Source: a virus (lineage: Duplodnaviria > Heunggongvirae > Uroviricota > Caudoviricetes). Taken from it: a stretch of DNA of 64,000 bases. The stretch covers positions 10,278 through 74,277 of IMG/VR virus record IMGVR_UViG_2836824207_000004; one strand, 5' to 3'. The position numbers and the translations under genes were made by a program. Position 1 is the first letter of the stretch, and each line of letters opens with the position of its first letter. The notes beneath the pieces were generated by a model, which did not search any database, was not told the origin of the DNA, and saw only the letters and a program-made list of their open reading frames with translations. Positions 3,321 through 52,265 of this stretch are shown here, piece after piece.

Positions 3321-3398
3321 GCCGAGAGGGCGGAGAATAAAACACCCGAAAGGGGAATAATCCCGACCGTTCCTTTGGCGGTTTTCGAACCTCTTGGC
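3321..3398 (+). ncRNA. Conserved structured 5-prime leader element, copy A (cis-regulatory RNA candidate)
   Basis: Closing stem gccgagagg / cctcttggc encloses an acccGAAAgggg GNRA hairpin and a second hairpin. It is homologous to copies B (4225-4301) and C (36564-36639) with compensatory base changes. It is preceded by a conserved block GCGGTTTTTTT..TAAAATTTGTGTTTCTCCTTTT. Confidence 0.35.
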
Positions 3399-3419
3399 AA
3401 CCCAACTTAAGGACTAGAA

Positions 3420-4224: not shown

Positions 4225-4301
4225 GATCGAGTGGGTGAGGAATACAATACCCGAAAGGGAAATAACTCCAGCTTACTACTAGGCTTCTGAACCACTCGAT
4301 C
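4225..4301 (+). ncRNA. Conserved structured 5-prime leader element, copy B
   Basis: 10-bp closing stem gatcgagtgg / ccactcgatc, internal cccGAAAggg GNRA hairpin and agctt..aggct hairpin. About 85% identical to copy C, with GU and compensatory changes. Confidence 0.4.
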
Positions 4302-4360
4302 ACCAGTTACCTTTATGATAAAGGCAACTGACATTATTCAGAAAATTAGTAGAGGCAATT

Positions 4361-15080: not shown

Positions 15081-15092
15081 TATCTATTCCCC

Positions 15093-16028
15093 TTATGCCT
15101 GTCTTGCTTTTTCAGTCATTTTGGAAACATAAGCATTTGCAGCCTGCTGAACTAACTCAATATTAGAGCTTTGCAAGCGACTTGCAATCTCTGATAATTT
15201 TGCGTTAAAAGTAGCATCAAATACATTCACATTCCCCTCAATCACATCTTGCAAAAACTGGATATCAGCTTGTTTTTGTGCATTCTCTTCTACATTATTT
15301 TCCATTGAGCTTCCCTCTTCGGCTTCTAATTGATCTAAGTCAATAAGGTTACCATTTTTATCACGAATTTCTAAGATCGTGAGCGTTGCTAATGGTTCGT
15401 CTTCTTGTGAATCATCTAAAATAGCGGTATTATTGTGCAAACCACCTTCAGCATAATTAAAGTTCCCCGCTTGCGTATTGTTACGTCCAAGACTCTGGAA
15501 TGCGTTATCTAAGGTGGTTTTATAGACTGCTGATGAATAAGCAATTAACTCTTCAAATGCCTCTAATTCCCCATTTTCTTTTTCTCCAGCCTTAGCAACA
15601 GCAAGTACTTTCATTCCATCAATGTCAAGCCATTTGTCATAACGGTGGAAAGCAACAAAATCTTTTCTTGGTTTCGTAAGTTCTTCTCTATCCTGAGCAT
15701 TTCCTGTTGTAAATACTTCGACAATTTTCGATACGGCAATAGCATTTAATTTCCCTTTTCTGCCATCACTAACTAGATGCTTAACACTTTGCTTACTGTT
15801 AAATCTGACTTCTTTGCCATCCACCGTTCTAATTGTTTTACCCTGTAAGTTCGCTTTTAACCATTTTTCAACTGCTGTGCTGAGTGCTTTACGGCTTGCA
15901 TTCTCTGGTAGCACTAATTCGGGTAAATTCTCTTCTACGTTATTTTCTATTGCGTTTCCCTGTTCAGCTCCTAATCGATCTAAGTCAATTAAATTCCCAT
16001 ATTTATCGCGAATTTCAAGAATTTCCAC
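15093..16028 (-). CDS. repeat-module protein (311 aa, GTG start), paralogous to the C-terminus of the 1401-aa protein; probably its frameshifted continuation
   Basis: ILEIRDK.GNLIDLD...LPELVLPEN...GMK..A.AKAGEKENGELE modules occur twice here and also in the 1401-aa ORF. The reading frame stays open and homologous up to a TGA at 16113-16115. Confidence 0.55.
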   Translation of the reverse strand: MEILEIRDKYGNLIDLDRLGAEQGNAIENNVEENLPELVLPENASRKALSTAVEKWLKANLQGKTIRTVDGKEVRFNSKQSVKHLVSDGRKGKLNAIAVSKIVEVFTTGNAQDREELTKPRKDFVAFHRYDKWLDIDGMKVLAVAKAGEKENGELEAFEELIAYSSAVYKTTLDNAFQSLGRNNTQAGNFNYAEGGLHNNTAILDDSQEDEPLATLTILEIRDKNGNLIDLDQLEAEEGSSMENNVEENAQKQADIQFLQDVIEGNVNVFDATFNAKLSEIASRLQSSNIELVQQAANAYVSKMTEKARQA

Positions 16029-16060
16029 TAAATAATCAGCGATTTCTTCTTGTGTTTCAT

Positions 16061-19000: not shown

Positions 19001-20266
19001 TTGATCTAACGCTTTATTTCTAATCCATTTTCCTTTTAAGTTATTTTCTAAGTACTCACGCACTGCCATTCTAAACTTAGTCTTCCCCTCTTCGCTCTCC
19101 GTATCAAACTCGCCAAATTCTTTGCCTGAAATCGCTATAGGTTGTTCTTTATCTTCTTCCTTGTCACTTTCCACTTGACTTAAACGCAATGCTTTTAATG
19201 CCTTATCAACAGGTTCATTAATCATTTCTGCGATTGCCTCAGGGGTATCAGTTAATTCATCGGTGTAGCTAAGGTTTAATTCAGGAATTGAATAAGTTAC
19301 GCCGATCATATTTGTGCCTGATTTTGAATAATGATAGGTTTCGGTTAAAACGTACCCCTCTTTACTTAATTCTTTGTAACTCTCACCTTTCCACCCCTTA
19401 TCTCTCAACATATTGCGAACAGCAACCACTCGGGCTTGGTAAATATTATCTAACTCATCTTCGCGGTCTGATAAACGATCTAAGGCTTTTAATTCAGCGT
19501 AAAGCGAAGCGTTAAGTTCGCTATCCATTAAGCGTTCATCTTCAAGGAGCTGGTCCACCTCTTCTTGTGCCTTCAAATATTGAAGTTCATCAATTTTTTT
19601 CAATTTCTGAGCAAGAATTTTTTCCTTTTCCGCAACACGCGTACGCAACGCATTGACACGTTCAAGGCGTTCTTTGCGATTTTTATTTTGGCGAGCAAAG
19701 GCAGCAGAATTTTTAGCGGCAATTTTCATAATGCGTAATGCCACTTGACGCACATCAATATCCTTACCTTTTTCTGGGGCAACTACAATCGTAATATCTT
19801 TTTTGTTTAGCAACCATTTGAAAGAAATCACCTCATCTTGTGGGGTAATTTTTTTCGGGGTTGTATCGGGATTATGAAAATAGATAGAAACGGTTTGCCC
19901 ATCAGAGAGTTCAAATAAAGCGACTACATTTGCCGTGCCTAATCGCATAAACGGATCGGAGATTTGATAACCTACCACAGTAAGCGGTACTGTTTTCCCT
20001 TCACTATCTTTTACATCAACGCCTGATCGGGACATCACACGTTGCATAATATTCATTTTTGCTGTCAATTTGGCATATTGTGCAATAATTGCATCCATAA
20101 TCAGTGCATTACTTGGTTCTGTTCCATCAAGAACATCATCCATTGTGCAAGGCTCATACATCAGCCCTGCTTTCATATCATCGTTTCGTAATGCGTCAAA
20201 TAATTGCTCAACAGTGGTATTTACTGGGTTTTGTTGGTTATCCCAAAAAGTCAGATTAAGTGCCAT
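16061..20266 (-). CDS. very large (1401 aa) multi-module protein with internal ~170-aa repeats; polyvalent/Dar-like virion protein candidate
   Basis: Repeat pair PIAISGKEFGEFDTESEEGK...LLHYDFILPRK / PIVISGKEFGEFDTETEEGK...LLHYDLTLEKN. Coiled-coil segment. C-terminal module paralogous to 15093-16028. Confidence 0.7.
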   Translation of the reverse strand: MALNLTFWDNQQNPVNTTVEQLFDALRNDDMKAGLMYEPCTMDDVLDGTEPSNALIMDAIIAQYAKLTAKMNIMQRVMSRSGVDVKDSEGKTVPLTVVGYQISDPFMRLGTANVVALFELSDGQTVSIYFHNPDTTPKKITPQDEVISFKWLLNKKDITIVVAPEKGKDIDVRQVALRIMKIAAKNSAAFARQNKNRKERLERVNALRTRVAEKEKILAQKLKKIDELQYLKAQEEVDQLLEDERLMDSELNASLYAELKALDRLSDREDELDNIYQARVVAVRNMLRDKGWKGESYKELSKEGYVLTETYHYSKSGTNMIGVTYSIPELNLSYTDELTDTPEAIAEMINEPVDKALKALRLSQVESDKEEDKEQPIAISGKEFGEFDTESEEGKTKFRMAVREYLENNLKGKWIRNKALDQDIEIRQRGINELIAWSANPKKLQIAAVIEQVIATAKPKNGIAAWEENTKKGKKRNVKGYYRFANSVNIAGENVNFDVLIEQDEKGLLHYDFILPRKSKAIMDNIDIGSDTYPEKDQSTITAFARENNNIILDEAQEEYMINIILLDEKGDVIEEEEGSVQVEKTEDKLQEDQPIVISGKEFGEFDTETEEGKKALRSKVLEHLTETLKGKWVKNLFLDRDIEIRKRGIKKTLANSANPLKLKALAQLEEIIKTAKGSKDYIQDNFKSDKKPNVLRYFHLENHVLVDNRPLKINVVIEEDTNGLLHYDLTLEKNKVALDSIEPFLNTIPGTFNAKSATGNSIENLEGECNSKDGFDAIMDSIEMKKVGSYEANKSSVSNLYQAQSSELLLDNIAILDGIDVEKATNLPSKYGESRLIQAQSELQPDNTAILNGKQVKNSLNPLLLDDTQQANLMIALNYAATLDDGLVIDATQLAQDQLEAALSVLENNLPINEQEGNIAQAELEREHIASIKEALSVSQSQPALDGVDDDGYVLNLFVEYKDENGNWVELKDEDEEVEPENSNAQPENIQSEPVLLHTSLLYKGEGYRPFLPGRDEEIEQFKQAGYTLEPFSVEGRSCTYSVHKTAEPYNIHITANWYSDGKKSYWVNVSPQKGYVTDAKENNGGQAKVSGANENAKSVTDAIQLAEELIQEEKHYRPLRKEKGYISGTYFATKGRSKTYFFYVSQNLETLKYRAYIQWSSGEPKEMTFDSLTELKEGVENYFRAYVKGTLPEITLSSGTDILEINANKEDQETTVESEQSNAVGETLPELVLPENANRETLNAIAQDYLKAHLQGKRIKTSDGKIVHFNRDQSVEHFSFNAQVGELETKALTKIAEVFSQGIFVGREETYKERKDKFIAFHVYQKQVEIDGMKLLLQTKAGEKENGELEVTGKLIGYTHKLLDNAESNSDGAPPVLTSPNGERPSGAMPSLIIKVRYF

Positions 20267-20333
20267 ATCAAATTATCCTTTTGTGAAAATAATAGGCACA
20301 GCATACGCACTTACTTTAAAGCGATGATTGCAA

Positions 20334-20350
20334 TTTTCCTATTAGGAAAA
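20334..20350. promoter_or_regulatory. TTTTCCTATTAGGAAAA motif copy 3
   Basis: Exact 17-mer between divergent starts 20266 (-) and 20417 (+). Confidence 0.5.
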
Positions 20351-20416
20351 ATACCGCACTTTTTCTCACTGTATTTTTCATAATACGGGTATATATCTCA
20401 ATAAAAAGGAAATGCA

Positions 20417-21283
20417 ATGACAAAGATGGTAACACCGATCATTCGGTACAACTTAAAAGAACGTATGCGTCGTTTTAACGGTACGGTAAGAAATTTTAAT
20501 ATTCCCAAATTGGTTGAAAATATTAACTCCCCCGCAATGCAAGAGCGGGTAAAACTTGGGGATTTACACGGTTATTATGGACATTGGCCACGTACAAAAT
20601 TTGGGGCTGAGCCGAAAGAAGGCGGGGTAATTGATGGCAAGGTCATCAATCTTGAACCTTGCTTTCGTACGGTTTATTTAAAAGCCTATGAAGATGGCAC
20701 AATTGAACATCAAGCAGAATTTTTTGATAATGATCCGGGTCGTAAAGCCTATGCTCAATCACAAGAAAAGAGCGGTGGTTTTTCGAGTGTTATTTTAGGT
20801 CGTGATCATTCTTTTCACGGTTTTGATTATGTCTTATTCCCGAATTATTCAGCGAATCGCCCTTATTCTGTAATGCTTGACTCGGCAGACGAAAATGTTG
20901 AGCAAGTCGTGCTTGTTCTTGATGAAATAGAAACCAGCACGGGGATCGCTCCAGAGTTACAAGCAGACTATATAGACTATCTACTAGACAGTATAGACCA
21001 ACTCAAAAAGGATAAGCTGCAGCTACTTACTGAGAATAAACAGCTTGCTGATACTCTTGCAGAAACGCTTAATCATAATGATTTACTCACTGATGACGTG
21101 CTTTTTTTGCAACAGAAATTAGTTCGACAAAAAGAAAACGAAAAATTTAATCCGATCGACCTTGATGACGCAATTTCTCAAGCTAACCACTTTAAAACGG
21201 CTAAAATTGAAACGGTTGAAACCGAAGAACCCAAAGCGATCACCGAATCAATGAAGCGGTTTAATCAAGTTTGGGGATTTTAA
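20417..21283 (+). CDS. hypothetical protein (288 aa) with C-terminal coiled coil
   Basis: Track ORF. Motif copy 3 lies upstream. Confidence 0.5.
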   Translation: MTKMVTPIIRYNLKERMRRFNGTVRNFNIPKLVENINSPAMQERVKLGDLHGYYGHWPRTKFGAEPKEGGVIDGKVINLEPCFRTVYLKAYEDGTIEHQAEFFDNDPGRKAYAQSQEKSGGFSSVILGRDHSFHGFDYVLFPNYSANRPYSVMLDSADENVEQVVLVLDEIETSTGIAPELQADYIDYLLDSIDQLKKDKLQLLTENKQLADTLAETLNHNDLLTDDVLFLQQKLVRQKENEKFNPIDLDDAISQANHFKTAKIETVETEEPKAITESMKRFNQVWGF

Positions 21284-21285
21284 CA

Positions 21286-22023
21286 ATGGCAACGCGTGCA
21301 ATTAAAGAAGCTGCGGCCCATTTTATGCAACGGTTTTTTCAGCAACTTGTCGCCAATGGTAATCAAGCCATTGCCCACTTTATCACCCGCCCTGATAATA
21401 AAAAAATGGCAATTGTACCGGGCCGCCTTGTTGATCAAGTAGAAGAAGCATTAAACAAATGGCGAGAAAAAGCCGCAAATGGAACACGCAGCCCGCTACC
21501 GATCTTTTTAATGGGCTTCGCTAAGGATTATAGCTCCACGGGCTTAGAAAAAGGGCGTAGTGTGGCACTGCCAAAATACACTGTATGCGATGATCAAGGT
21601 AACTTTTTTTATCTTCGTTTAGATAAACACGATCAGCGTGTTCAAATCGTCCTTTTTGCTCCCGATCACGAAACCGCCTTTTCACTTGCTAGCCAGTTTA
21701 AATTGTATTGTGGCGATTATGGCAATCGGCATTTATTCTCTATCAACCATTACAATGACTTGAACTACGGCTTTCCAATGCAATTAGAAGATAGCCAGAT
21801 CTTTGGGGCTTCTCAACAAATTGCAGATCAAGATAATTTGACCGTTTTAGTTTTTGATCTCACCTTTAATTGCAATACTCCTTACTTTTTAGGCGATAAG
21901 GTTAATCGCACCCCTTATCTACCAACAGTTCAAGCAGTAGTATTGCAAGAACAGCAAATTAAAACTCGACAAATGTTTTTTCATAATTTAGAAGGTACAT
22001 CTATTTCGGAGTTATTAGACTAA
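21286..22023 (+). CDS. hypothetical protein (~246 aa)
   Basis: ATG at 21286 follows the stop of the upstream gene. Confidence 0.5.
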   Translation: MATRAIKEAAAHFMQRFFQQLVANGNQAIAHFITRPDNKKMAIVPGRLVDQVEEALNKWREKAANGTRSPLPIFLMGFAKDYSSTGLEKGRSVALPKYTVCDDQGNFFYLRLDKHDQRVQIVLFAPDHETAFSLASQFKLYCGDYGNRHLFSINHYNDLNYGFPMQLEDSQIFGASQQIADQDNLTVLVFDLTFNCNTPYFLGDKVNRTPYLPTVQAVVLQEQQIKTRQMFFHNLEGTSISELLD

Positions 22024-22490
22024 TGTTATTACAAGCAAACATCGGGGGATTTCAGGGGCGACCTGCAACGGTTCTCGCTGTACTAGATGAAAATGAACAG
22101 CGTCTCTATATCGATCGTGCTATTGCACTGAGAGAAGAACGAGCAAAAAACGAACTCGGTGAAATGGCAGGCTTAATCACCAATCAACCTCAGAAAGATT
22201 TTGATTATTCGTTTTCTGAAAAAGACTTCCGCCAAGCCTTTCAGGATTTTCGTTTCTATCACAATAGTAGTCGGCTTACCTTTGGACAGTTAGCCAAACA
22301 AGCCATTCCCGCTGTAGAAATTGACAAAATTACAGAAAATGGCACAAATTTTGCCATTTATGGCGAGATAACCAATGAACAATTTGCCGTAATCGCATTA
22401 TGTTTCTTCGCCCAAAAAACGACGCAGATGCAAGATTCATTGAATGCCTTTGAGCATTACTCAGATTTCAATGAATGGATTACCATTTAA
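22023..22490 (+). CDS. hypothetical protein (155 aa)
   Basis: Track ORF with an ATGA-type overlap. Confidence 0.5.
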   Translation: MLLQANIGGFQGRPATVLAVLDENEQRLYIDRAIALREERAKNELGEMAGLITNQPQKDFDYSFSEKDFRQAFQDFRFYHNSSRLTFGQLAKQAIPAVEIDKITENGTNFAIYGEITNEQFAVIALCFFAQKTTQMQDSLNAFEHYSDFNEWITI

Positions 22491-22499
22491 GGAGGAGCG

Positions 22500-22982
22500 A
22501 TGGCACAAACTCAAGTTCATCAACAGCTACACAATATAGCAAGACAGGTTACACTTAATCACCCCAATGCGTTCGATGCAACCTGCTTTCAAAAAATCTA
22601 TTTATCTGCCAATGGAAAAAATCAAATTGGGGCGTTTGATGTTCTAGGCGGAGAAGATGTATCAGAAATTGATTTTAAACATCTTGGTATGGCAAAAGTC
22701 TTATTTGTCGAGCCGTGGCAAGCCTCAAAAATTCTTGCTGACGGTGAAAATGCGAATGATACCCGCATTAAAATAATGGCAATGATTGAACCAGATATTG
22801 AGGGAGAATTTACCCTTGATAAAGGGGATATTTTTTATATCCAAATAGATCAATCGCTAGGGCTTGCCTATGAAGTTGTTGGCATTGAATTACCTATTGG
22901 GCTTCCTACTGCAATGAATGCGAAACGCTATCTACTGAATAAACGTGATGATTTGGATTACATTGAAGACTTGCCAAAATGA
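22500..22982 (+). CDS. hypothetical protein (160 aa)
   Basis: GGAGG RBS upstream. Confidence 0.5.
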   Translation: MAQTQVHQQLHNIARQVTLNHPNAFDATCFQKIYLSANGKNQIGAFDVLGGEDVSEIDFKHLGMAKVLFVEPWQASKILADGENANDTRIKIMAMIEPDIEGEFTLDKGDIFYIQIDQSLGLAYEVVGIELPIGLPTAMNAKRYLLNKRDDLDYIEDLPK

Positions 22983-22985
22983 TTA

Positions 22986-23020
22986 AAAAGTGCGGTCATT
23001 TTCTACCGCACTTTTTTCTT
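22986..23020. terminator. bidirectional terminator (inverted USS pair)
   Basis: aaagtgcggt-cattttct-accgcacttttt between convergent operons. Confidence 0.6.
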
Positions 23021-23453
23021 AGCTAAATTGTTGCTCAAATTCTATATCATAAAGCGAATAGAAACTCCCATCTTCCCAGATCGCAAAATCACGATTTCCT
23101 TGAAAATAATTCGCATTATAGTAGTCTTTAAATTCCCAAGCTGCCATTAATGTTGCTAATTCATCAATCTGTAATGTAGCGGGATTTTTGACCGTATAAG
23201 CATCACGCAATAGAATTTCTGTTTCCCCCTCATAGCCAACAAATCCTTTAGCGTGCATAATCGCTTTTACTGACCACCAATAAGGCCCAAATTTAAGGTA
23301 ATTCAGCGGCAATTTCTTGATAAAACGATCGGTGATAGCATAAATTTCTTTATGATAATCGAGATTGGGAGAATGCTGTAAAAAATGGTGTTTGGCATCA
23401 TTAAATAAATCAATTAAATACTCATATTCAAGAAAAAATTCTGTCGCTTTCAT
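23019..23453 (-). CDS. hypothetical protein (144 aa)
   Basis: Track ORF downstream of the 544-aa gene. Confidence 0.45.
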   Translation of the reverse strand: MKATEFFLEYEYLIDLFNDAKHHFLQHSPNLDYHKEIYAITDRFIKKLPLNYLKFGPYWWSVKAIMHAKGFVGYEGETEILLRDAYTVKNPATLQIDELATLMAAWEFKDYYNANYFQGNRDFAIWEDGSFYSLYDIEFEQQFS

Positions 23454-23462
23454 AAGGTGTCC

Positions 23463-25097
23463 TTAATAATCGTTCTGTTGAGATTGTGAAGATATGATAG
23501 CTTTTGCATAAAGCTCCGCTTCATCTTGATCTAACAACATCTGTTTTGTCATAAATAGCACCATCTCTTTTTCACTAAATCCGAGATTTTTTGTTTGCTC
23601 TAGGGTCTGAGAGATCAGCCCCGCACTGCCTATCGCATTAGCTCGCGTTTGCTGGCGTTCTGATTCAAAGGCTGAAATTGAGCCATAGTAATTAATTTGG
23701 AATGGACGATTTGTGTTATTCCAGCATTTACCGTATTTATATAGCATATGTTTATCAATCAAATCGATAAAAAAATCAGCCATCGCAGCTCGAATAACTC
23801 GGCTAGACTCTGCAATTTGTGCCGACATTCTGAAAAATCCGCCATCACCTAATCCGCCAGACAACTGATCAGCAAAACCTAGCATAGACAAATCAATTCC
23901 TAATGTTCCCGCCAATAAACGTGCGTGAAGCATAATATCCTCTATTGAGACTGAGCCTTGACGACGAGAGCCCATTCCTTCGCCCTGTGTAACGACTTGC
24001 TTCTCTTCGTGGGTAAATAATACGTGGCGAATGCGGCCATATTGTGGCTCACCTTGCATTGCTTTATCTGCAAGGAGTTTAGATTTAAGCAGCGTTTGCT
24101 TAACATTTTGTGCAAGTTTTATTTGCTGTTCTCGTGTACCCCCGCTCATATTCACCATAATAAAACTTTCATCAATGGCATCGACTAAACGCTGTCCGAC
24201 AAGGGAAGCAAGAGAAATATAGAAATCGGTAAAAGGTTTTTCCGCAGTGAATAATAACGATCCGCCAATCATAGCGGGAACTATCGGCAATCGGTCAGGG
24301 TTATCTTCAGCAATATTATATTTATAGGATTTTGACAACATTCCCGCCTGCGGAACAGTAACAAATCTCGCCATTGCCATTCTAGCTATTTGTAAAGTCG
24401 TTAGTCTGGTCAAATGATGTCGTGTTGATCCCGCTAAAAATCCTACGGTTCGCCCGCCTTGTTCATAAGGCAAAATCAACGTAGGGTGAACCATTTCATC
24501 AGTTACTAACCCGACAAGCCCTTTGCCTTTCTCATAATAGGTTCTTGCATAACCATCACCAAAAGCCAACGCGTTGTAGGCAACAGAAAAGGCGTGCTTG
24601 TTAAACATTTCAGATAAATCAGAACGCACCTCCTCCAAAACTTTTTTATCCACTTCTGAAGCATTTGCGGCATCTTCAATAAAAACAACATCACCACTGG
24701 TTTCGTGTCCGCCCAATGCAGCTGTAACGTGCGTTTTAAGTGCTATCGAAATAACGGGATCTTTTTCCATTAATCGCCATTGCTGGTAAATTGCCGAACG
24801 AGAACGAGGCGGAGCATTACTTGTTCCCATCAATCCTGCAATAGTTAATCCACTTAAATCATCACCATAAGGCAACTCATAGGTTGAAGCCCATTGCTGA
24901 CTTTGACTAATCTCTTTTTCTTCAGGAAAAAGTAAACGATGTCTATCATCATCTAATAAGCGAGAGATTGAATTCGGTTTCGCGACAAGTGCGGTACTCT
25001 TTTCCGCTTGTTTTTCACCCAATCCAAACATACTTTTAAAAAAAGGCTTTTTTTTCAAAGGAAGTTCCATTCTCTTATGCCGTTCAAAATTTTTCAT
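23463..25097 (-). CDS. large structural-type protein (544 aa); portal-like is a guess
   Basis: Size and late-operon position only. No Walker motifs, so not a terminase. No motif match remembered. Confidence 0.3.
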   Translation of the reverse strand: MKNFERHKRMELPLKKKPFFKSMFGLGEKQAEKSTALVAKPNSISRLLDDDRHRLLFPEEKEISQSQQWASTYELPYGDDLSGLTIAGLMGTSNAPPRSRSAIYQQWRLMEKDPVISIALKTHVTAALGGHETSGDVVFIEDAANASEVDKKVLEEVRSDLSEMFNKHAFSVAYNALAFGDGYARTYYEKGKGLVGLVTDEMVHPTLILPYEQGGRTVGFLAGSTRHHLTRLTTLQIARMAMARFVTVPQAGMLSKSYKYNIAEDNPDRLPIVPAMIGGSLLFTAEKPFTDFYISLASLVGQRLVDAIDESFIMVNMSGGTREQQIKLAQNVKQTLLKSKLLADKAMQGEPQYGRIRHVLFTHEEKQVVTQGEGMGSRRQGSVSIEDIMLHARLLAGTLGIDLSMLGFADQLSGGLGDGGFFRMSAQIAESSRVIRAAMADFFIDLIDKHMLYKYGKCWNNTNRPFQINYYGSISAFESERQQTRANAIGSAGLISQTLEQTKNLGFSEKEMVLFMTKQMLLDQDEAELYAKAIISSQSQQNDY

Positions 25098-25137
25098 AAT
25101 GACATTTTGGAAGAAGTTAAGCTTAAATTTGTGGCAA

Positions 25138-25154
25138 TTTTCCTAATAGGAAAA
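25138..25154. promoter_or_regulatory. motif copy 4, inverse orientation TTTTCCTAATAGGAAAA
   Basis: Lies 41 bp upstream of the minus-strand start at 25097. Orientation follows the single downstream gene. Confidence 0.5.
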
Positions 25155-25213
25155 AATTTCAATGAAAAAGTAAAATAATAAACGGCAATATCACTTATCG
25201 CCGTTTATTTAAC

Positions 25214-25684
25214 TTATTTCGCTTGAAGTTCGTTTAAGGTTTTGTCTGCATTTGCAATTAACTCATCTAACTCTTGTTCTCGCTGAGTTAATGTTGCTTC
25301 CTCACTGGTAATCGTTGATTTAATTTTAGGCGGCAAAGCAACTTTTGTTCTCGCTAATTTTTTCTGGAAATCTAAACGTCCTTTATCCAATTTAGCGATA
25401 ATTTCTTGTATTGCTTGATCAATATTTTGTTGGTTCTTAATAGGCATTTCTTTGCCATTGATTTTCACCTTAAAAATATCGCCTGTTTGTTTAATTTGAA
25501 AAATGACTTGCTGTGAATCAGCGAACCCTAACGCCAATTCTTTATAAGAAATCCCACTTGTACGTTTAATCGCTGACAACTCACTTGAAGCTACTTCAAT
25601 TCCCGCTTTGGTGAAATACTTAATCACCTCTTTCGTGCTTTTGTCATCTTTACCATTCATTTTTTCGAAATCAAAAACAATCAC
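25214..25684 (-). CDS. hypothetical protein (156 aa)
   Basis: Track ORF at the end of the lysis operon, with a terminator hairpin downstream. Confidence 0.45.
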   Translation of the reverse strand: MIVFDFEKMNGKDDKSTKEVIKYFTKAGIEVASSELSAIKRTSGISYKELALGFADSQQVIFQIKQTGDIFKVKINGKEMPIKNQQNIDQAIQEIIAKLDKGRLDFQKKLARTKVALPPKIKSTITSEEATLTQREQELDELIANADKTLNELQAK

Positions 25685-35343: not shown

Positions 35344-35360
35344 TTTTCCTAATAAAAAAC
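35344..35360. promoter_or_regulatory. motif half-copy 6 TTTTCCTAATAAAAAAC
   Basis: Half-site upstream of the start at 35300. It overlaps a USS hairpin. Confidence 0.35.
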
Positions 35361-35388
35361 CGCACAACAAAGTGCGGTCGTTTTTTTC
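35356..35388. terminator. terminator from an inverted USS pair
   Basis: accgcac-aacaaa-gtgcggt followed by a T-run. Confidence 0.6.
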
Positions 35389-35587: not shown

Positions 35588-36523
35588 TTAACGTAAGTAA
35601 TTTACGGTTTTTGTGGGGCTTTGCTCTGTTCTTGGGCTGTTAAAAATCAAGTTTTCGATTTCTTGCTGTATTTTTTTATCTTTAAGCGATTGGGTGTGCT
35701 TGGCGATAAAGCTTTCTAGCGTTTGTGCAAGTCGATTGCTAGCAGTACCAAGGTTGAAAGCGGTTTTGTAGTTTTTATGGCTTTCCAAGTCGGAAAATAG
35801 CTCCTCTAAACGCTCCCAAGCGGCAACAGAATGATTGATGTAATTCATTGCTTTAGCTAGCATATAGAAATTTTCCATATCTAACGCAAGGCTATTGGGT
35901 GGCAATTCTTGCATTGGGTGCATTGAAGCAATGTAAATCATCACATCACGATGATCTTTGCGTTTGATTTGCTCATATTTCGCCACCGCAAATTTATTTT
36001 TCACTCTTGCCCAGATTTCGCCATAACTCATTTTTGTGCGTTGATGGGTTGCAGCAACGGCGTTTTGAATAAGGCGTTGTTCTTCGGGGGTGATGGTGTC
36101 GTTTTCATTTATTGATAAAACTTTTTCTGCCTTGCCTTTATTCCAATAATCAAACAATGCTTGATAACATTCTCTTTTGTAGGTGATCAAGGTTTCTCTG
36201 ATTTCAGGTTTCACCCGTTTTACATCAATGCCAAATAGCCAGCCGTTGAGGTATTGGATTGGAAGGCATAATGTTTGTTGTTCACCACCTTGTGAAGGTA
36301 TGGTTATAATGACCATACCTTGAGAAAGAACTTCATCGCGTTTAATTCTTGCATATTGAGCTTTCCAGTCCAGACCAATATTTTCACAAATTGGCTTCAT
36401 TGCGACATAATGAACGTTGTTTTGCTCAAATGTAGTTAAAGTGCGGTCGTAAAATTGGATTGTTTGGAGTTGAGTTTGAATTGACATAATAGCCTCTGTA
36501 ATTTTCGAAATTTTGCTAGCCAA
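35588..36523 (-). CDS. phage antirepressor with P22 Ant-type N-terminal domain plus the shared C-terminal domain
   Basis: YVAMKPICENIGLDWKAQYARIKRDEVLSQGMVIITIPSQGGEQQTLCLPIQYLNGWLFGIDVKRVKPEIRETLITYKRECY matches the P22 antirepressor N-terminal pattern. The C-terminal 170 aa is ~95% identical to 4361-5257. Confidence 0.75.
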   Translation of the reverse strand: MASKISKITEAIMSIQTQLQTIQFYDRTLTTFEQNNVHYVAMKPICENIGLDWKAQYARIKRDEVLSQGMVIITIPSQGGEQQTLCLPIQYLNGWLFGIDVKRVKPEIRETLITYKRECYQALFDYWNKGKAEKVLSINENDTITPEEQRLIQNAVAATHQRTKMSYGEIWARVKNKFAVAKYEQIKRKDHRDVMIYIASMHPMQELPPNSLALDMENFYMLAKAMNYINHSVAAWERLEELFSDLESHKNYKTAFNLGTASNRLAQTLESFIAKHTQSLKDKKIQQEIENLIFNSPRTEQSPTKTVNYLR

Positions 36524-36563
36524 TTTAAGGTGTTCTTATAACACGAATACCTTTTGAAATTGG

Positions 36564-36639
36564 TGATCGAGCGGTTCGAAAGCCTACAGCAGGCTGGAGT
36601 TATTTCCCTTGCGGGTATTGTATTCCTCGCCCACTCGAT
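36564..36639 (-). ncRNA. Conserved structured 5-prime leader element, copy C
   Basis: gatcgagtggg / cccgctcgatc closing stem with a GU wobble. Internal cccGCAAggg GNRA tetraloop and perfect agcct-gctgt-aggct hairpin. Confidence 0.4.
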
Positions 36640-36787
36640 CATAGATTAAAATTACCATTTTTGTCCAAACTTGGCTGAGAAAAGGAGAAACACCAAATTC
36701 TAGATACAAAAAAACCGCAATGGATTTAGGTCTTGCGGAACTGACCGCTGTAAGGTTTCGACACCTATCAGACTAATACTAATAAAA

Positions 36788-36810
36788 AGCCTATTGCTTG
36801 TCAATAGGCT
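36788..36810. terminator. hairpin AAAAGCCTATTG..CAATAGGCT bordering the accessory island
   Basis: 9-bp stem. The same 12-mer AAAAGCCTATTG starts the hairpin at 39085. Confidence 0.4.
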
Positions 36811-36831
36811 ATATTGATGTTCGGCAACAGA

Positions 36832-37068
36832 TCACTTTCTACGTCGTTTTCGGCGTTTTTTAGATGAATTGGAACCAAAAATACCTAATATTGATATTGC
36901 AACAAACAATACAAAAAACACAATTTTAAATATCCAAACTAGGATAGAAAATATCTTTTTAAATATCTTTTTTTTGCTGCCTTTTCTTTCTGCCAGCCAA
37001 ACTTCCTTAGGAATAAGATGAAGAACTGGTTTAGTCGGTTCGTTAGACATTTTCGTTATCCTCATCAT
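36832..37068 (-). CDS. small membrane protein with poly-basic tail (78 aa or shorter)
   Basis: TM segment ILVWIFKIVFFVLFVAISILGIF followed by KKRRKRRRK. It overlaps the end of the upstream gene. Confidence 0.4.
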   Translation of the reverse strand: MMRITKMSNEPTKPVLHLIPKEVWLAERKGSKKKIFKKIFSILVWIFKIVFFVLFVAISILGIFGSNSSKKRRKRRRK

Positions 37069-38305
37069 CTGATTCTGTTATTTCGTTATATTGATTGGAT
37101 TTTTTCATAGCTTGTGATTGGCGATATTCATTGGCTTCTGCAACCATTGTGAACTCCACTTCACAACCTAATTTTTCAGCAGCTTTTGCAATTTCGGCAA
37201 GATCGACCTCAAAAAATTCTTTTTTAGTATTAACTCTATTGACCTGACAATGTGCGAATTTTTTATGTAATGTGTTTTCTAGTTTTGGTGCATCATCTGT
37301 CCTAATTAAAGCGTGGACATCAAAAGGGAATGGAACACTGGCATCACCTAATTCTTTAACTCGATCTAACGGTTCTAATCTTCTTGTCATTCCGATTTTA
37401 TAAACATTTTCCCCAAAAGAACCAATGTTAGAAATGACATATACCGTACCTTGTTTGGTGAGTTGAGCCATTGATATAGCACGTTGAGAGTCTTCTATCG
37501 CTTGCTTTAAATCTTGTTCTGCTTGAGCCAGTTTAGCTAATAACTCTTTATTGGTTTTATCTAATTCAAGCAATTTTTTATACTGTGCGATCTCTTTTTG
37601 AGCTTCCCTCTCTTTTTGTTCCGCTAGTTTTCTTTGTTTTTCAGCTTCACGTTGAACTTTTTGTTCTTCTCTCATCTCTTCTTGAATACGTTGCTGTTCC
37701 TCTTTTTCTCGTTGTTTTTTAAGTTCATATTCAAAGGCTAGGTGTAATTCTTCGTGTTTCAGAGCTAAATAATCTTCGCTAATGAAGATCCGAAATATCA
37801 CGCCTTGTTTGTTTAACCTTTCAAAGGACTTAGTCATTTTATTCTTGAACAAATCAAAGTTTCGGAAAGAGACATCGTTAATCAATAAATCACATTCTTT
37901 GTCAAATGCCGTAAGCATTATAGTTGATATGTTATTCATCATAGTAAAACCATCTTTTTCAGCTGTTTTACCTAGCCCGACGACCCATTCAGCATCGGAA
38001 TATGTAGCTTGCTCTGATTTTTTTAATTCAGCTTGTTTCTGTTTATTTTCATTCCATTTTTCTTTGAAACGTTTAGAAGAGCGAAATCTGAATTTTGGTG
38101 TGTAAGGAGCAATAGTGGAGACTTCTTGAGCGCATTCTGATTGACTGCCCTTAGAAAAGGGTTGTCCTTGATTGTTTTTGAGTTTCTTCCATTTTCTATA
38201 GTAAATAACAAATAAGATTAAAAAAATAGGGGAGGATAAAAACCAAATGATTGGTAATGCGGCGTCCATAAATAAACTCCTAAAATGAATGTGGGAATTT
38301 ATCAT
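37043..38305 (-). CDS. membrane-anchored DUF4041-like coiled-coil protein with C-terminal T5orf172 (GIY-YIG-like) domain
   Basis: N-terminal TM, long E/K/Q coiled coil. C-terminus VYVISNIGSFGENVYKIGMTRRLEPLDRVKELGD...EFFEVDL fits the T5orf172 pattern. Confidence 0.6.
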   Translation of the reverse strand: MINSHIHFRSLFMDAALPIIWFLSSPIFLILFVIYYRKWKKLKNNQGQPFSKGSQSECAQEVSTIAPYTPKFRFRSSKRFKEKWNENKQKQAELKKSEQATYSDAEWVVGLGKTAEKDGFTMMNNISTIMLTAFDKECDLLINDVSFRNFDLFKNKMTKSFERLNKQGVIFRIFISEDYLALKHEELHLAFEYELKKQREKEEQQRIQEEMREEQKVQREAEKQRKLAEQKEREAQKEIAQYKKLLELDKTNKELLAKLAQAEQDLKQAIEDSQRAISMAQLTKQGTVYVISNIGSFGENVYKIGMTRRLEPLDRVKELGDASVPFPFDVHALIRTDDAPKLENTLHKKFAHCQVNRVNTKKEFFEVDLAEIAKAAEKLGCEVEFTMVAEANEYRQSQAMKKSNQYNEITESDDEDNENV

Positions 38306-38491
38306 ACCAAAATTAAGAAACTTTTAAAGTAAGTGAGAACACCTTAATCAGATTGTATTCAACGAGCTTAAAATTGAGCTGGCCAAATTTATCACTGAGA
38401 TAGCAGCATTAAAACTAACAAAAATTAACTCATTGAAAAAGTGTAGTGCTATGATATACAATAACCGTATTATTAATTAAATTCTTACCTT

Positions 38492-38770
38492 ATGATACTT
38501 TCATTTAAGCATAAAGGCTTGGAAAAATTCTATAAAACTGGCTCAACTGCTGGGATTATTGTTGCACATTCGGCTAAATTAAAGCGAATTTTAGCGCGAT
38601 TAAATAGCTCAAAACAAATACAAGATATGAATATCCCGGGTTGGAATTTGCACCCATTAGCTGGAAACCTAACCAATCATTGGAGTGTTAAGGTAAATGG
38701 TAATTGGCGAGTTACGTTTAAACTGGAAAATGGACACGCTGAAATTGTGGATTATCAAGATTATCATTAG
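38492..38770 (+). CDS. higB: HigB toxin (RelE/ParE superfamily)
   Basis: MILSFKHKGLEKFYKTGS... matches the HigB killer-protein family. Toxin-first gene order. Confidence 0.8.
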   Translation: MILSFKHKGLEKFYKTGSTAGIIVAHSAKLKRILARLNSSKQIQDMNIPGWNLHPLAGNLTNHWSVKVNGNWRVTFKLENGHAEIVDYQDYH

Positions 38771-38779
38771 GAGATTACG

Positions 38780-39073
38780 ATGAATATGTATTGCCCACCG
38801 CACCCAGCAGAAGTTATCAAAGAAGATATTTTACCCGAGTTAGGCTTAACTGTAACACAGGCGGCTAAACAGTTAGGCGTAAACAGGGTAACCTTTTCCC
38901 GATTATTAAACGGCAAGTCCGCAATTAGTGCTGAAATGGCTTTACGGCTGCACGCTTGGCTAGGGGAAAATAGCCCTAGTCCAGAGAGCTGGTTACATCA
39001 GCAAGCGGATTATGATTTATGGAAAGCCTCACAAAAGCAAACATTTTCGGTTCAGCCTGCTTTTGTAGTATAG
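38780..39073 (+). CDS. higA: HigA antitoxin (XRE HTH)
   Basis: HTH segment LTVTQAAKQLGVNRVTFSRLLNGKSAISAEMALRL. Gene follows higB with a 9-nt gap. Confidence 0.8.
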   Translation: MNMYCPPHPAEVIKEDILPELGLTVTQAAKQLGVNRVTFSRLLNGKSAISAEMALRLHAWLGENSPSPESWLHQQADYDLWKASQKQTFSVQPAFVV

Positions 39074-39084
39074 CGAATATAAGA

Positions 39085-39110
39085 AAAGCCTATTGATTAT
39101 CTATAGGCTT
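39085..39110. terminator. bidirectional hairpin aaagcctat..ataggcttt
   Basis: 9-bp stem after higA and after the convergent small terminase gene. Confidence 0.5.
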
Positions 39111-39182: not shown

Positions 39183-39845
39183 TTACGCTTCTTCATTTTC
39201 CGCATCTAACAGTGCCTTTCTTTCTTCCATTTCAGCACGCTCCTGCATTAACCGCGTCTCTTCCTGTCCTGAAGCTAAAATTGCGTCAAGTTCTTCGTAA
39301 ACTTTATCCATACTTTTCACTTCAACGGTTGATTCGACTTGTTGTTTTGGAACTAAATCATAATTTACATTCCCCAAGAATTGCACAAGTCTTGAGTCAT
39401 ACATTCCAACTAAACCGCCCTCAACAAGCATTGTTTTGCCTAGATCTTTAAACCTTTTGTACGCACCGAATAATTGTTTATTTTTTATACTTCCATCTTC
39501 ATTTTTCGCAGTACAATTATCTGTAAATGTTTGTTCATCAACACCACACAATAGAGCCATTCTTGTTATTGTTGGGAAAGCAACGCCAAGTATATCCATT
39601 TTCTTTCCCTCACTGTCTTTTTGAATTAACTCATAGTATTTGAGTTTCCCTTCAACATAATCATTGATCGCAGCCTCCATTTTCTCAATAGCTAAATCTG
39701 GATCAAACTTATAGGGACGTCCCCGTTTGGTTTCCCATTGCCCCTCTTCTAATTTGAGTTCCCTCTTCGAAATTGCGGCACTCACTTTTGCTTTACGTTT
39801 AACTTTTGTTTTTGCCGTTGTTGCAGCTTCCTTTCTAGTCGCCAT
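39183..39845 (-). CDS. terminase small subunit (Terminase_2-like)
   Basis: KRGRPYKFDPD...PTITRMALLCGVDEQTF...LVGMYDSRLVQFLGNVNYD match the pattern of Terminase_2 small subunits. No large subunit follows. Confidence 0.6.
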   Translation of the reverse strand: MATRKEAATTAKTKVKRKAKVSAAISKRELKLEEGQWETKRGRPYKFDPDLAIEKMEAAINDYVEGKLKYYELIQKDSEGKKMDILGVAFPTITRMALLCGVDEQTFTDNCTAKNEDGSIKNKQLFGAYKRFKDLGKTMLVEGGLVGMYDSRLVQFLGNVNYDLVPKQQVESTVEVKSMDKVYEELDAILASGQEETRLMQERAEMEERKALLDAENEEA

Positions 39846-49934: not shown

Positions 49935-50192
49935 ATGAAAAATAAAATTACTGATTTAAACAACCATCTTTTTAGTCAATTAGAAAAATTGTTAGATGAA
50001 GATTTAACAGATGAAGAATTAAAAAGGGAAATTGCTAGAGCGAATGCGGTATCTGGTATTGCATCGAATATCATTCAAAATTCTAATACAGCCATTAAAG
50101 CAATGCAGCTTTTCGGTGACCGCACTATTGAGGCAGATGCACCCGATTTTTTAAGAATATCAAAGGCACAAAATGACAAAAAAACGCTTTAG
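49935..50192 (+). CDS. hypothetical protein (85 aa)
   Basis: Track ORF. Confidence 0.45.
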   Translation: MKNKITDLNNHLFSQLEKLLDEDLTDEELKREIARANAVSGIASNIIQNSNTAIKAMQLFGDRTIEADAPDFLRISKAQNDKKTL

Positions 50193-50880
50193 GTTTACTG
50201 ATGAACATATTGCTTTTATCCGTGAACATAAAGATTTAGCTCCTAAAGATCTCATTCAGGCCTTTTATCAACAATTTGGTTTGCTAAAGAATAGGCAGGT
50301 TTTTAGAAAGCTAAAAAAACGATTAGGAATTATCTCAACGGTTCAACATTGCAATCGATATACCAAAGAAGAGTTAGCCTTTATCAAAGAAAATTGCACT
50401 TTACCGCAAGCGGAATTAACCAAACTATTTAATCAAAAGTTTAACCGTAATCAGACCGCACAAGTAATTAGGGCACTGTGTGCTAAAAGAGGTTGGCTGA
50501 CTGGTAGAAATGGGCGATTTAAAAAAGGAGAACATTTAAAGCCTATTGGTTACGAGCGATTTTGCCCTATGGCAAAAGCCGTGTTGATAAAAACAGGAGT
50601 TAAGCGTTATGAAAGAAAATCACACGTTATCTGGGAACAAGCCTTTGGCAAAATCCCTCAAGGATTTGTTTTGTGGTTTAAAGACGGCAATATTCAAAAT
50701 TGTGAGTTATCTAATTTAGAACTAATCAGTCGTAATGAAATGCTATGGCGACATAAGCTGAATTACCACGAATTAGACAGCAGTGTGAAACAAACTTTTA
50801 ATGTGTTTATTCAACTACGAGAAAAATTGATAAAACTCAAAAAGCAACAGCAACAAAAGGACCGCATAGCAAAAGGATAA
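50173..50880 (+). CDS. HNH endonuclease (HNH_3-like)
   Basis: SHVIWEQAFGKIPQGFVLWFKDGNIQNCELSNLELISRNE is typical of HNH_3 homing-type endonucleases. Confidence 0.7.
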   Translation: MTKKRFRFTDEHIAFIREHKDLAPKDLIQAFYQQFGLLKNRQVFRKLKKRLGIISTVQHCNRYTKEELAFIKENCTLPQAELTKLFNQKFNRNQTAQVIRALCAKRGWLTGRNGRFKKGEHLKPIGYERFCPMAKAVLIKTGVKRYERKSHVIWEQAFGKIPQGFVLWFKDGNIQNCELSNLELISRNEMLWRHKLNYHELDSSVKQTFNVFIQLREKLIKLKKQQQQKDRIAKG

Positions 50881-50935
50881 GCTAAGGTGCTGTCACCACC
50901 TGAGATTGTAGGTTCAAGTCCTACTGCGGTCGCCA
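50860..50935 (+). tRNA. tRNA-like element with Asp (GUC) anticodon arm, non-canonical 5-prime half that overlaps the HNH stop
   Basis: Perfect acceptor pairing GACCGCA/TGCGGTC with a G discriminator and CCA. T-arm gtagg-ttcaagt-cctac. Anticodon arm aggtg-cuGUCac-cacct. The D-arm is one nt short and the V-loop is 6 nt. Confidence 0.3.
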
Positions 50936-50943
50936 ATTTATCA

Positions 50944-51009
50944 CAAGGCACACTGAGTCATTATCTACGGATTATTTTAGACCAATCTTCTTGCCGTAGT
51001 TAGTGTGCC
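50944..51009. repeat. nested inverted repeat (12-bp arms ACAAGGCACACT / AGTGTGCCTTGT with an inner 6-bp pair)
   Basis: Perfect 12-bp arms separated by 42 bp. Lies directly after the tRNA-like element. Confidence 0.6.
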
Positions 51010-51116
51010 TTGTCATAACTTTCATTCAAAACCGCATTCTTAGCCGCTCGTTTTTAGTCTTTTTCATCGTGGCTTTGCGTGCGGTTCTAAATGAGATGAG
51101 AAATAGGAGAAACGCA

Positions 51117-52265
51117 GTGAAAAAATATGAATTAACCGATGAATATATTGAGATCGGATTTACAACTAAAATTAAACTCTATCGCATAAAAGCTTTAGTA
51201 GCAATCGCATCAATCGGCGTTAGTGCTGGTGATTTGGGTGGCTATATTGAGAAAGAGTCAAACTTAGATCAGAGCGGCGATGCCTGGGTGTACGATAATG
51301 CCAAGGTGTACGATAATGCCAAGGTGTACGGCGATGCCGTGGTGTCCGGTAATGCCAAGGTGTCCGGTAATGCCAAGGTGTCCGGCGATGCCGTGGTGTG
51401 CGGTAATGCCGTGGTGTACGGTAATGCCAAGGTGTACGGCGATGCCAAGGTGTGCGGCGATGCCAAGGTGTACGGTGATGCCGAGGTGTACGGTGATGCC
51501 GTGGTGTGCGGTGATGCCAAGGTGTACGATAATGCCGTGGTGTGCGGTGATGCCGAGGTGTACGATAATGCCGTGGTGTCCGGTGATGCCGAGGTGTCCG
51601 GCGATGCCAAGGTGTACGGCGATGCCGTGGTGTGCGGTAATGCCGTGGTGTACGATAATGCCGAGGTGTGCGGTGATGCCGTGGTGTACGGTGATGCCGA
51701 GGTGTACGGTGATGCCAAGGTGTACGGCGATGCCGTGGTGTCCGGTGATGCCAAGGTGTCCGGCGATGCCGTGGTGTGCGGTGATGCCGTGGTGTACGGT
51801 AATGCCAAGGTGTACGGCGATGCCGTGGTGTACGGTGATGCCGTGGTGTCCGGTGATGCCGTGGTGTACGGTGATGCCGAGGTGTACGGTGATGCCAAGG
51901 TGTACGGCGATGCCGTGGTGTCCGGTGATGCCAAGGTGTCCGGCGATGCCGTGGTGTGCGGTGATGCCGTGGTGTACGGTAATGCCGTGGTGTGCGGTGA
52001 TGCCAAGGTGTACGGTAATGCCGTGGTGTGCGGTGATGCCAAAGTGTCCGAGAGATCTGATATTGTATGGTTTTCGAATGTTGGTACGGAGTACGGAACA
52101 TTAACCGTATTTAAAACTAAGCAAGGAGTATTGTGGGCTACTAGAGGATGTTTTAGTGGCTCTGTTGAGGAGTTTTTGAAAAAATCCGCGGAAGTTCACG
52201 ATGAAAAAACGAAAAGAGAATATCAACTCTTGATCGAAGTGGCTAAATCCAGATTAGGTGAATAA
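51117..52265 (+). CDS. 6-residue-repeat (beta-solenoid-like) protein, about 43 copies of V-[YSC]-G-[DN]-A-[KVE] plus unique N- and C-terminal domains
   Basis: GTG at 51117 has an AGGAGA RBS. The in-frame ATG at 51096 is an alternative start. The repeats are encoded by 18-bp tandem DNA repeats. Confidence 0.6.
   Translation: MKKYELTDEYIEIGFTTKIKLYRIKALVAIASIGVSAGDLGGYIEKESNLDQSGDAWVYDNAKVYDNAKVYGDAVVSGNAKVSGNAKVSGDAVVCGNAVVYGNAKVYGDAKVCGDAKVYGDAEVYGDAVVCGDAKVYDNAVVCGDAEVYDNAVVSGDAEVSGDAKVYGDAVVCGNAVVYDNAEVCGDAVVYGDAEVYGDAKVYGDAVVSGDAKVSGDAVVCGDAVVYGNAKVYGDAVVYGDAVVSGDAVVYGDAEVYGDAKVYGDAVVSGDAKVSGDAVVCGDAVVYGNAVVCGDAKVYGNAVVCGDAKVSERSDIVWFSNVGTEYGTLTVFKTKQGVLWATRGCFSGSVEEFLKKSAEVHDEKTKREYQLLIEVAKSRLGE
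51271..52050 (+). repeat. about 43 tandem 18-bp repeats (GGTGTACGGCGATGCCAA variants)
   Basis: Variation is concentrated at codon positions giving Y/S/C, D/N and K/V/E. All three minus and plus frames are open here, which is an artefact. Confidence 0.8.

Follow-up and report, generated by a model that had tools for sequence, protein, structure and literature searches.

The DNA analysed here, referred to as the window, is a stretch of 64,000 nucleotides (positions 10,278 to 74,277 of IMG/VR virus record IMGVR_UViG_2836824207_000004) and is a large mosaic prophage region of a Pasteurellaceae genome. Its minus strand carries a gene for a homologue of the anti-phage protein PD-lambda-1, also called SNIPE, followed by a gene for a small membrane protein, and the two adjoin a HigBA toxin-antitoxin pair. 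The original prediction, made from the sequence alone, had joined these genes in one abortive-infection or exclusion module, lying between two hairpins and displacing the large terminase gene. All four open reading frames (ORFs) that it named are present in the ORF listing, and both hairpins lie where it had placed them. The features of the element that is the subject of this report are the following.

36779..38428, minus strand: swappable SNIPE cassette with its own putative promoter, the SNIPE gene, the small partner gene and a terminator, delimited by comparison with prophage contigs L004-L006
38301..38328, minus strand: promoter-like site inferred for the SNIPE operon, TTTAAA-16-TATGAT with an extended TG
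37043..38269, minus strand: short-stalk SNIPE/PD-lambda-1 homologue of 408 amino acids (aa); the ORF is open to an ATG at 38305 (37043-38305, 420 aa)
36832..37050, minus strand: small membrane partner ORF of 72 aa; open from an ATG at 37068 (36832-37068, 78 aa)
36788..36810, minus strand: intrinsic terminator of the SNIPE-partner operon, found by terminator scan; a 9-bp stem followed by TTTTTATTAG, -11.9 kcal/mol, z -4.4

PD-lambda-1 came out of a functional screen (Vassallo et al. 2022, PMC9519451) and was characterised as SNIPE in 2026 (Saxton et al., PMC13190303). The DUF4041 domain of SNIPE binds both DNA and the tape-measure proteins of siphoviruses, and the nuclease cuts siphophage DNA during injection; the infected cell survives, and the defence is direct rather than abortive (PMC13190303). 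Removal of the transmembrane (TM) helix makes the protein toxic, and residue E414 is required (PMC13190303). The N-terminal region has been proposed to be an adaptor that influences phage specificity, and the protein associates with ManYZ in E. coli (PMC13190303). Myoviruses are not targeted by E. coli SNIPE, and prophage induction is unaffected (PMC13190303). A homologue from Streptococcus thermophilus has been reported to give anti-phage protection.

Results

A SNIPE homologue with a short stalk

The start of the SNIPE gene is most likely the ATG at 38269, which is preceded by an AGGAG ribosome-binding site and coincides with the start annotated at NCBI. The promoter-like site at 38301-38328, the best candidate, lies within the cassette, downstream of the alternative ATG at 38305 and upstream of that at 38269, a position that fits the 408-aa start.

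The product of the 420-aa ORF is almost certainly a member of the SNIPE family. A search with PADLOC, which the original prediction had proposed as a check, matched the PD-lambda-1 model (PDLC03976) with an E-value of 7e-132, residues 59-410 aligning with positions 131-482 of the 491 in the profile. Pfam assigns the domains DUF4041 (also listed as SNIPE), T5orf172 and MUG113, the first of them (PF13250) with an E-value of 5.2e-15 and 55.5 bits against a cutoff of 27. By BLASTP the protein is 46% identical over 349 aa (E 2e-80) to the PD-lambda-1 annotated in E. coli phage PhiR26_1. The C-terminal GIY-YIG nuclease domain is present with its catalytic glutamate: E414 of the E. coli protein aligns with E331 of the 408-aa protein, and this residue and the GIY, YIG and Arg motifs are invariant in alignments of 20 and of 81 homologues. 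A search of the Protein Data Bank (PDB) by sequence with the nuclease domain gave zero matches, and in a fold comparison the top ranks were mostly generic helical hairpins.

A single-pass TM segment is predicted within the first 70 residues, where the Kyte-Doolittle 19-residue maximum reaches 2.44 at ALPIIWFLSSPIFLILFVI. The AlphaFold2 (AF2) model, with a predicted local distance difference test score (pLDDT) of 86, comprises a TM helix (4-33), a low-confidence segment (35-50), helix and strand elements (65-163), a helical hairpin (165-272) and an alpha/beta domain (274-390); the predicted middle region is assigned to DUF4041, in which a 10-residue block reaches a pLDDT of up to 98, and the predicted last domain to GIY-YIG. 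A TM-anchored coiled-coil GIY-YIG protein with a co-oriented 78-aa TM peptide, as first read from the sequence, is thus borne out, and its placing in a defence context agrees with homology to a validated defence protein. As prophage cargo in a typical position, the main gene belongs to a defence system that is already known.

The protein departs from the E. coli form in its N-terminal part. About 25-30 residues, partly the low-confidence segment of the AF2 model, separate its TM helix from DUF4041, compared with about 105 extra residues there in the E. coli protein, and the window protein is without some 83-105 residues of helical stalk. In the AF2 model of a Pasteurella multocida long form, the TM helix runs on as one helix (3-105, about 100 residues) and is followed by a return helix (114-143) before DUF4041 begins. 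Among the matches listed, the nearest SNIPE relatives outside Avibacterium paragallinarum are four proteins of 50-57% identity (P0002, P0003, P0008 and P0010), and these share the short N-terminus: a TM helix, an RK-rich basic patch, about 20 residues and the basic segment Y-x-P-K-Y-R-F-R-S-S-K-R-Y-K, at which the long forms instead have an acidic F-D-T-S-E-E-Y-K. Scans of genomes, metagenomes and viral contigs with SNIPE alignments returned, among the matches listed, only forms in which the match begins at about residue 45-58. The N-terminal length is highly variable across the SNIPE family (PMC13190303), and therefore the missing stalk does not exclude membership. As judged from the alignments, short-stalk SNIPE appears as a rare clade distinct from the long forms.

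A small membrane protein encoded directly downstream of short-stalk SNIPE

The ORF that follows the SNIPE gene encodes an N-terminal KPVLHLIP..W motif, a basic patch, one strongly hydrophobic helix and a KKRRKRRRK poly-basic tail. Its start is likely the ATG at 37050, giving 72 aa: GAGGA stands ahead of this codon, which overlaps the SNIPE stop by 8 nucleotides (aaATGtcTAA). Homologues are encoded directly downstream of SNIPE in L087, L088, L089 and L096/L097, where the ORFs after P0002, P0003, P0008 and P0010 are co-oriented and 48, 97, 97 or 98 aa long. In four of the five loci, the window included, start and stop overlap by 4-8 nucleotides; the fifth has an 11-nucleotide gap. The five proteins align over a common N-terminal motif, (K)P-x-x-[HY]-L-[IY]-P-x-x-x-[YWF], and a basic patch, followed by one or three hydrophobic helices.

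This family lies directly 3' of SNIPE in all five short-stalk loci and in none of 208 long-form loci (128 were parsed with enough downstream sequence, and 80 viral loci were checked by hidden Markov model (HMM) only). A local HMM search of all six-frame ORFs of at least 25 aa in the 258 fetched loci found it in short-stalk loci only, and a family profile run against 1.84 billion representative proteins recovered nothing but partners, the sole new match, P0124, again adjoining a SNIPE gene (that of P0008). Two long-form Pasteurellaceae loci (L090 and L093) were inspected base by base, and in both the SNIPE stop is followed directly by a terminator. The linkage of a TM peptide to the nuclease, as first proposed, is thereby supported.

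Some features of the small ORF would fit a frame that is open by chance, in sequence rich in A+T and in lysine codons, and that encodes nothing. The ORF is short, and its poly-basic tail is of low complexity; Pfam, PHROGs and PADLOC hold no matching family, and NCBIfam gave only sub-threshold matches to YidC TM segments; and a word-indexed search with the partner alignment returned three known partners only, the window's own peptide not being among them. We nevertheless find such an origin scarcely credible, because the N-terminal motif and a TM helix are kept in loci whose SNIPE proteins are only 50-57% identical, HMM E-values against the whole library range from 1e-7 to 1e-42, the ribosome-binding site and overlapping start are conserved, and independent gene callers annotate the ORF. 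Derivation as a split-off piece of the long-form N-terminus was also considered and was ruled out by hhalign, which gave a probability of 0.2% for the partner profile against the SNIPE alignment. From these comparisons the partner emerges as a real conserved family, found only 3' of short-stalk SNIPE.

A separate observation concerns the long-form loci themselves. Six of the 128 parsed have some adjacent small TM ORF, none of them related to the partner; unrelated small TM ORFs follow long-form SNIPE at L010 (offset +4, 64 aa), L019 (offset +26, 70 aa), L133 (offset +4, 112 aa) and L163 (offset -34, 109 aa), and two of the loci with such an unrelated ORF are from Hymenobacter. These could reflect chance or the independent recruitment of small membrane partners.

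Prophages often encode small membrane exclusion proteins, and the partner might accordingly be an independent prophage moron, of superinfection-exclusion or holin-like type, that shares a transcript with SNIPE and has no functional tie to it. The variation between one and three TM helices and the unrelated TM ORFs at a few long-form loci would agree with this, as would the discussion of membrane-acting superinfection exclusion in the report of SNIPE and the fact that E. coli SNIPE needs no partner (PMC13190303). We consider it unlikely, however, since the family occurs only beside SNIPE, in five of five loci and nowhere else among the 1.84 billion representatives, since the overlap of start and stop in four of them implies coupled translation, and since the partner co-occurs specifically with loss of the N-terminal stalk. 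The small protein thus probably works with SNIPE, although any specific role assigned to it is doubtful. A conserved coupled ORF follows in all five short-stalk loci, and therefore the single-gene definition of SNIPE does not describe them; the arrangement suggests a two-gene variant of SNIPE that is not described in the report of that system, which makes no mention of a downstream, accessory or two-gene arrangement (PMC13190303).

The cassette is exchanged in sister prophages

Three IMG/VR prophage contigs of the same lineage (L004-L006), sister A. paragallinarum prophages, are 97-99% identical to the window on both flanks and are collinear with it up to 38429 and again from 36778. In place of window positions 36779-38428 they hold unrelated sequence, with a 179-aa ORF resembling P22-type antirepressors and a 70-aa ORF resembling Arc/Mnt-type repressors (translations judged by eye). 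The exchangeable unit is therefore 36779-38428 and not the span from hairpin to hairpin. The G+C content of this unit is 33.7%, against 39.7% for the window. In viral contigs, 450 SNIPE relatives were confirmed. Replacement in sisters, low G+C, a promoter-like site and terminator of its own and relatives in viral contigs together mark the cassette, on comparative grounds, as a prophage moron, in agreement with the earlier reading of a defence gene as prophage cargo. A. paragallinarum is a poultry pathogen, and the strain-variable prophage defence cassette identified here could affect phage susceptibility.

The features that surround the cassette are as follows.

36558..36639, minus strand: sRNA-Xcc1 family RNA (Rfam RF02221, 59.9 bits against a gathering score of 53), in a conserved leader of about 230 nucleotides upstream of the ant gene
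38492..38770, plus strand: higB toxin gene, 92 aa (Pfam HigB-like_toxin, E 2e-22; full-length match to 4mct; PHROG 3066, toxin of a toxin-antitoxin system)
38780..39073, plus strand: higA antitoxin gene, 97 aa, helix-turn-helix protein (TIGR02607 antidote_HigA, 92.4 bits against a cutoff of 47.7; HTH_3), kept in L004-L006
39084..39111, strand not assigned: hairpin between the convergent higA and TerS-like genes, -11.4 kcal/mol (plus) and -13.0 kcal/mol (minus), z -3.3 and -4.4; on the minus strand followed by UUUUCUUAUAUU
39183-39845: TerS-like gene, a weak assignment (PHROG E 6.5e-6 only; no Pfam or NCBIfam match)

The SNIPE-less sisters have the gene order TerS-like, higA, ant region, baseplate, the same as in the window. 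The cassette therefore displaced no terminase gene, and displacement of the large terminase, as originally proposed, is rejected; the small terminase call is itself weak. A scan of the larger ORFs across the window showed no large terminase. The packaging genes of P1 lie apart from its other late genes, and the large terminase gene of this prophage may lie outside the window.

The hairpins are terminators

The window has exactly two copies of the 12-mer AAAAGCCTATTG, one at 36785 and one at 39084, and, as first noticed, a stable hairpin begins at each copy (-11 to -13 kcal/mol, z -3.2 to -4.4; 0 or 1 of 200 shuffles fold as well). Four copies with one mismatch elsewhere in the window have no such hairpin. 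That the two hairpins form the borders of an island was not upheld: both are terminators, and the right one, which falls in the block common to L004-L006 and the window, is kept in loci without SNIPE. It is likely a bidirectional terminator shared by higA and the TerS-like gene rather than a border, and the left hairpin alone belongs to the cassette. As an account of the island, a recombination or att-like border at the 12-mer is rejected on the same retention of the right hairpin without the cassette and on the cassette's right junction at 38428/38429, which is not at a hairpin. The identity of the two copies may be due to chance (about 1-2% by our own estimate) or to common terminator ancestry.

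The loop of the left hairpin contains the -35 element of a promoter-like sequence (TTGACA-17-TAGTAT, 36804-36776) for the downstream sRNA/ant unit. The TTGACA in the loop has TAGTAT 17 nucleotides on, and the left hairpin would therefore double as cassette terminator and part of the sRNA/ant promoter. A TTGAC-loop hairpin followed by TTTTTTATTA also precedes the conserved leader in L088, L090 and L093, and the leader element of about 230 nucleotides is kept in L004, L006, L090, L091, L093 and L094. It is context and not part of the defence unit.

Rfam places three sRNA-Xcc1 copies in the window, at 3321-3406 (plus), 4225-4309 (plus) and 36558-36639 (minus), with 72, 61 and 60 bits against the gathering score of 53. 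Those at 4225 and 36558 lie in leaders of about 230 nucleotides upstream of Ant-like genes (4361-5257 and 35588-36523), and SNIPE genes of Pasteurella multocida prophages and of related metagenomic contigs (L090/L091) are also followed by this leader. Possibly it acts as an immI-like RNA that regulates antirepressor expression.

HigBA is a separate neighbour

HigB matches the Proteus HigB structure 4mct over its full length (E 1.6e-19), and higB and higA follow one another on the same strand in toxin-first order with a gap of 9 nucleotides. The pair, which is divergent from the cassette, has a promoter-like site of its own, and by these features it is a canonical, independent toxin-antitoxin system that adjoins the cassette but is separate from it. 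Window positions 38543-38777 are absent from L004-L006, a 235-bp deletion that removes all but 17 codons of higB. The deletion is clean (L004 3440-3570 and the equivalents in L005 and L006) and leaves an orphan higA with its promoter. Between it and the cassette swap lie 114 bp of 100% identity, and the two are therefore separate events.

The original prediction made HigBA, the nuclease and the TM peptide one module. The genes do lie within 2.3 kb, intact higB and SNIPE occur together in the window strain and in contigs L001-L003 and are both missing from L004-L006, and HigB-type toxins occur in some defence systems, a HigB toxin being among the domains newly associated with defence (Vassallo et al., PMC9519451). 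The divergent arrangement and the 114 bp of identity between the two changes nevertheless argue against such a unit, as does the distribution of HigBA: none is found among the called genes next to SNIPE at the other four short-form loci (L087, L088, L089 and L096) or at the long-form Pasteurellaceae loci examined (L090 and L093). The three-gene unit thus fails both in these loci and in sister prophages that lack higB. Of the two activities envisaged, exclusion remains in agreement with the action of SNIPE at DNA entry, but abortive infection does not, by analogy with the E. coli protein, whose defence is direct and leaves infected cells alive. The SNIPE-less relatives, too, have this gene order with no large terminase, and it is very improbable that the genes form a single module, for abortive infection or exclusion, which displaced it.

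The prophage

The window contains 28 Haemophilus-type uptake signal sequences (USS), and the 420-aa protein is 100% identical to an NCBI protein named from A. paragallinarum. On the minus strand, from about 46.7 kb down to 40.5 kb, lie lambdoid early genes (repressor, CII, O-like, DnaC-like, Dam, NinB and NinG). Below about 35.3 kb, PHROG labels identify baseplate, tail fibre, PmgG-like, lysis, Hdf-, Ulx- and DarB-like, portal, tape-measure-like and tail-tube genes, a late set that we take to be P1-like from the names of P1 genes. The prophage would thus presumably combine lambdoid early genes with late and counter-defence genes of P1-like kind. The island sits between the early and the late block, together with the TerS-like gene and a P22-type antirepressor gene (35588-36523). 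The tail of the resident prophage is apparently contractile, as judged from baseplate J-like and wedge proteins. Megablast of window positions 30-45 kb against GenBank phages gave zero matches, and by this comparison the prophage appears to have no close sequenced phage relative.

Several further observations were made in the window. Adjoining the portal gene, positions 13162-25684 hold PHROG-labelled Hdf-like, Ulx-like and DarB-like methyltransferase/helicase fragments (homologues of anti-restriction and internal proteins) and a 1401-aa protein. A bidirectional terminator-like hairpin at 35358-35379 is an inverted pair of Haemophilus-type USS (AAGTGCGGT). A tRNA-Asp(GTC) gene (50860-50935, plus) lies within the phage-like region and overlaps the 3' end of an HNH-endonuclease ORF (50173-50880). 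A 420-aa ORF at 51003-52265, distinct from that of SNIPE, matches several PHROGs of unknown function at multiple internal sites and is overlapped by long ORFs on the opposite strand and in other frames, a pattern suggestive of low-complexity or repetitive coding sequence.

Discussion

Taken as a whole, the locus is probably best explained as a self-contained short-stalk SNIPE cassette with a putative small second subunit, HigBA being separate. By analogy with E. coli SNIPE, the prophage would express the protein constitutively, the N-terminal helix would place it in the inner membrane, DUF4041 would bind the infecting siphovirus's tape-measure protein as well as DNA, and the GIY-YIG domain would cut superinfecting siphovirus DNA on injection, the lysogen surviving; defence activity in this host is argued on the same analogy. 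The resident prophage, with its apparently contractile tail, may bear no cost, given that E. coli SNIPE spares myoviruses and prophage induction. The small protein would be a co-translated second subunit. By our reading of the charge distribution in the members with three TM helices, its N-terminal motif should be cytoplasmic, on the same side as the SNIPE domains. The motif might then bind SNIPE physically, the helix or helices supplying an adaptor, positioning or restraining role, and for positioning, partner recognition or auto-inhibition the small protein may stand in for the missing stalk. As a tentative extension of this reading, short-stalk SNIPE could be an obligate two-component system, in which the partner is an adaptor or regulatory subunit that tethers or auto-inhibits the nuclease and sets the injection route that is recognised.

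Several points weigh against a functional partnership. The A. paragallinarum partner ends in SNSSKKRRKRRRK after its one helix, and the predicted periplasmic tail fits the positive-inside rule poorly; the other one-helix partner (L087) ends right after the helix. The partner sequences are short and divergent (26-43% identity, one or three TM helices). All five loci with a partner belong to one clade (50-57% SNIPE identity), and inheritance rather than a functional requirement could account for the linkage. Finally, a single gene suffices for SNIPE in E. coli and very variable N-termini are tolerated in the family (PMC13190303), so that a partner is not obviously needed.

SNIPE tells self from non-self by location, since it cuts DNA only while this is entering through the membrane by injection. 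What keeps it inactive at the membrane and how it is matched to an injection route are open questions (PMC13190303). A stalk-less SNIPE with an always co-translated small membrane protein would offer a simple genetic handle on both; if the partner is the anchoring or regulatory part, it could be deleted or swapped while the nuclease is left intact. If this holds, the membrane-localised anti-injection nuclease would have recognition as a module that is encoded separately and can be exchanged, and, should the partner function with SNIPE, annotating PD-lambda-1 as a single-gene system would miss a component in the short-stalk clade.

Comparison with known systems

The HigBA pair resembles HigBA of Proteus vulgaris Rts1 in its toxin-first order, in the match of HigB to 4mct and in a HigA score above the TIGR02607 cutoff. 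Nothing unusual was seen in the pair itself; it differs in adjoining a SNIPE cassette and in the loss of higB in sisters.

Small prophage membrane proteins such as HK97 gp15 block DNA entry. Like proteins of this type, the partner is small inner-membrane prophage cargo linked to defence at the DNA-injection step; unlike them, it has no PHROG or Pfam similarity and is coupled to a nuclease gene instead of acting on its own.

The long-form SNIPE proteins of Pasteurellaceae (P0014 of Pasteurella multocida and the metagenomic P0006) are 46-49% identical to the window protein. Their genes, too, stand in late or tail-gene clusters in the order SNIPE, TTGAC-loop terminator, sRNA-Xcc1 leader, ant or Bro gene; in other Pasteurellaceae prophages long-form SNIPE lies directly upstream of an ant or Bro-N gene, also in tail-gene clusters. 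In contrast to the window form, they keep the stalk, have no downstream partner and have a terminator directly after the stop codon.

E. coli SNIPE shares with the window protein the N-terminal TM helix, DUF4041, the long helical hairpin and the C-terminal GIY-YIG (T5orf172) domain, and it is likewise prophage cargo with its own promoter. For Pasteurellaceae, the activity, the targets and a host partner corresponding to ManYZ would be read from it by analogy. The window form differs in being without the stalk of about 83-105 residues and in the segment ahead of DUF4041, which is basic (FRFRSSKRFK) rather than acidic (FDTSEEYK). Lastly, the SNIPE gene of E. coli stands alone between genes on the opposite strand, whereas the window form is followed by a translationally coupled gene for a small membrane protein.

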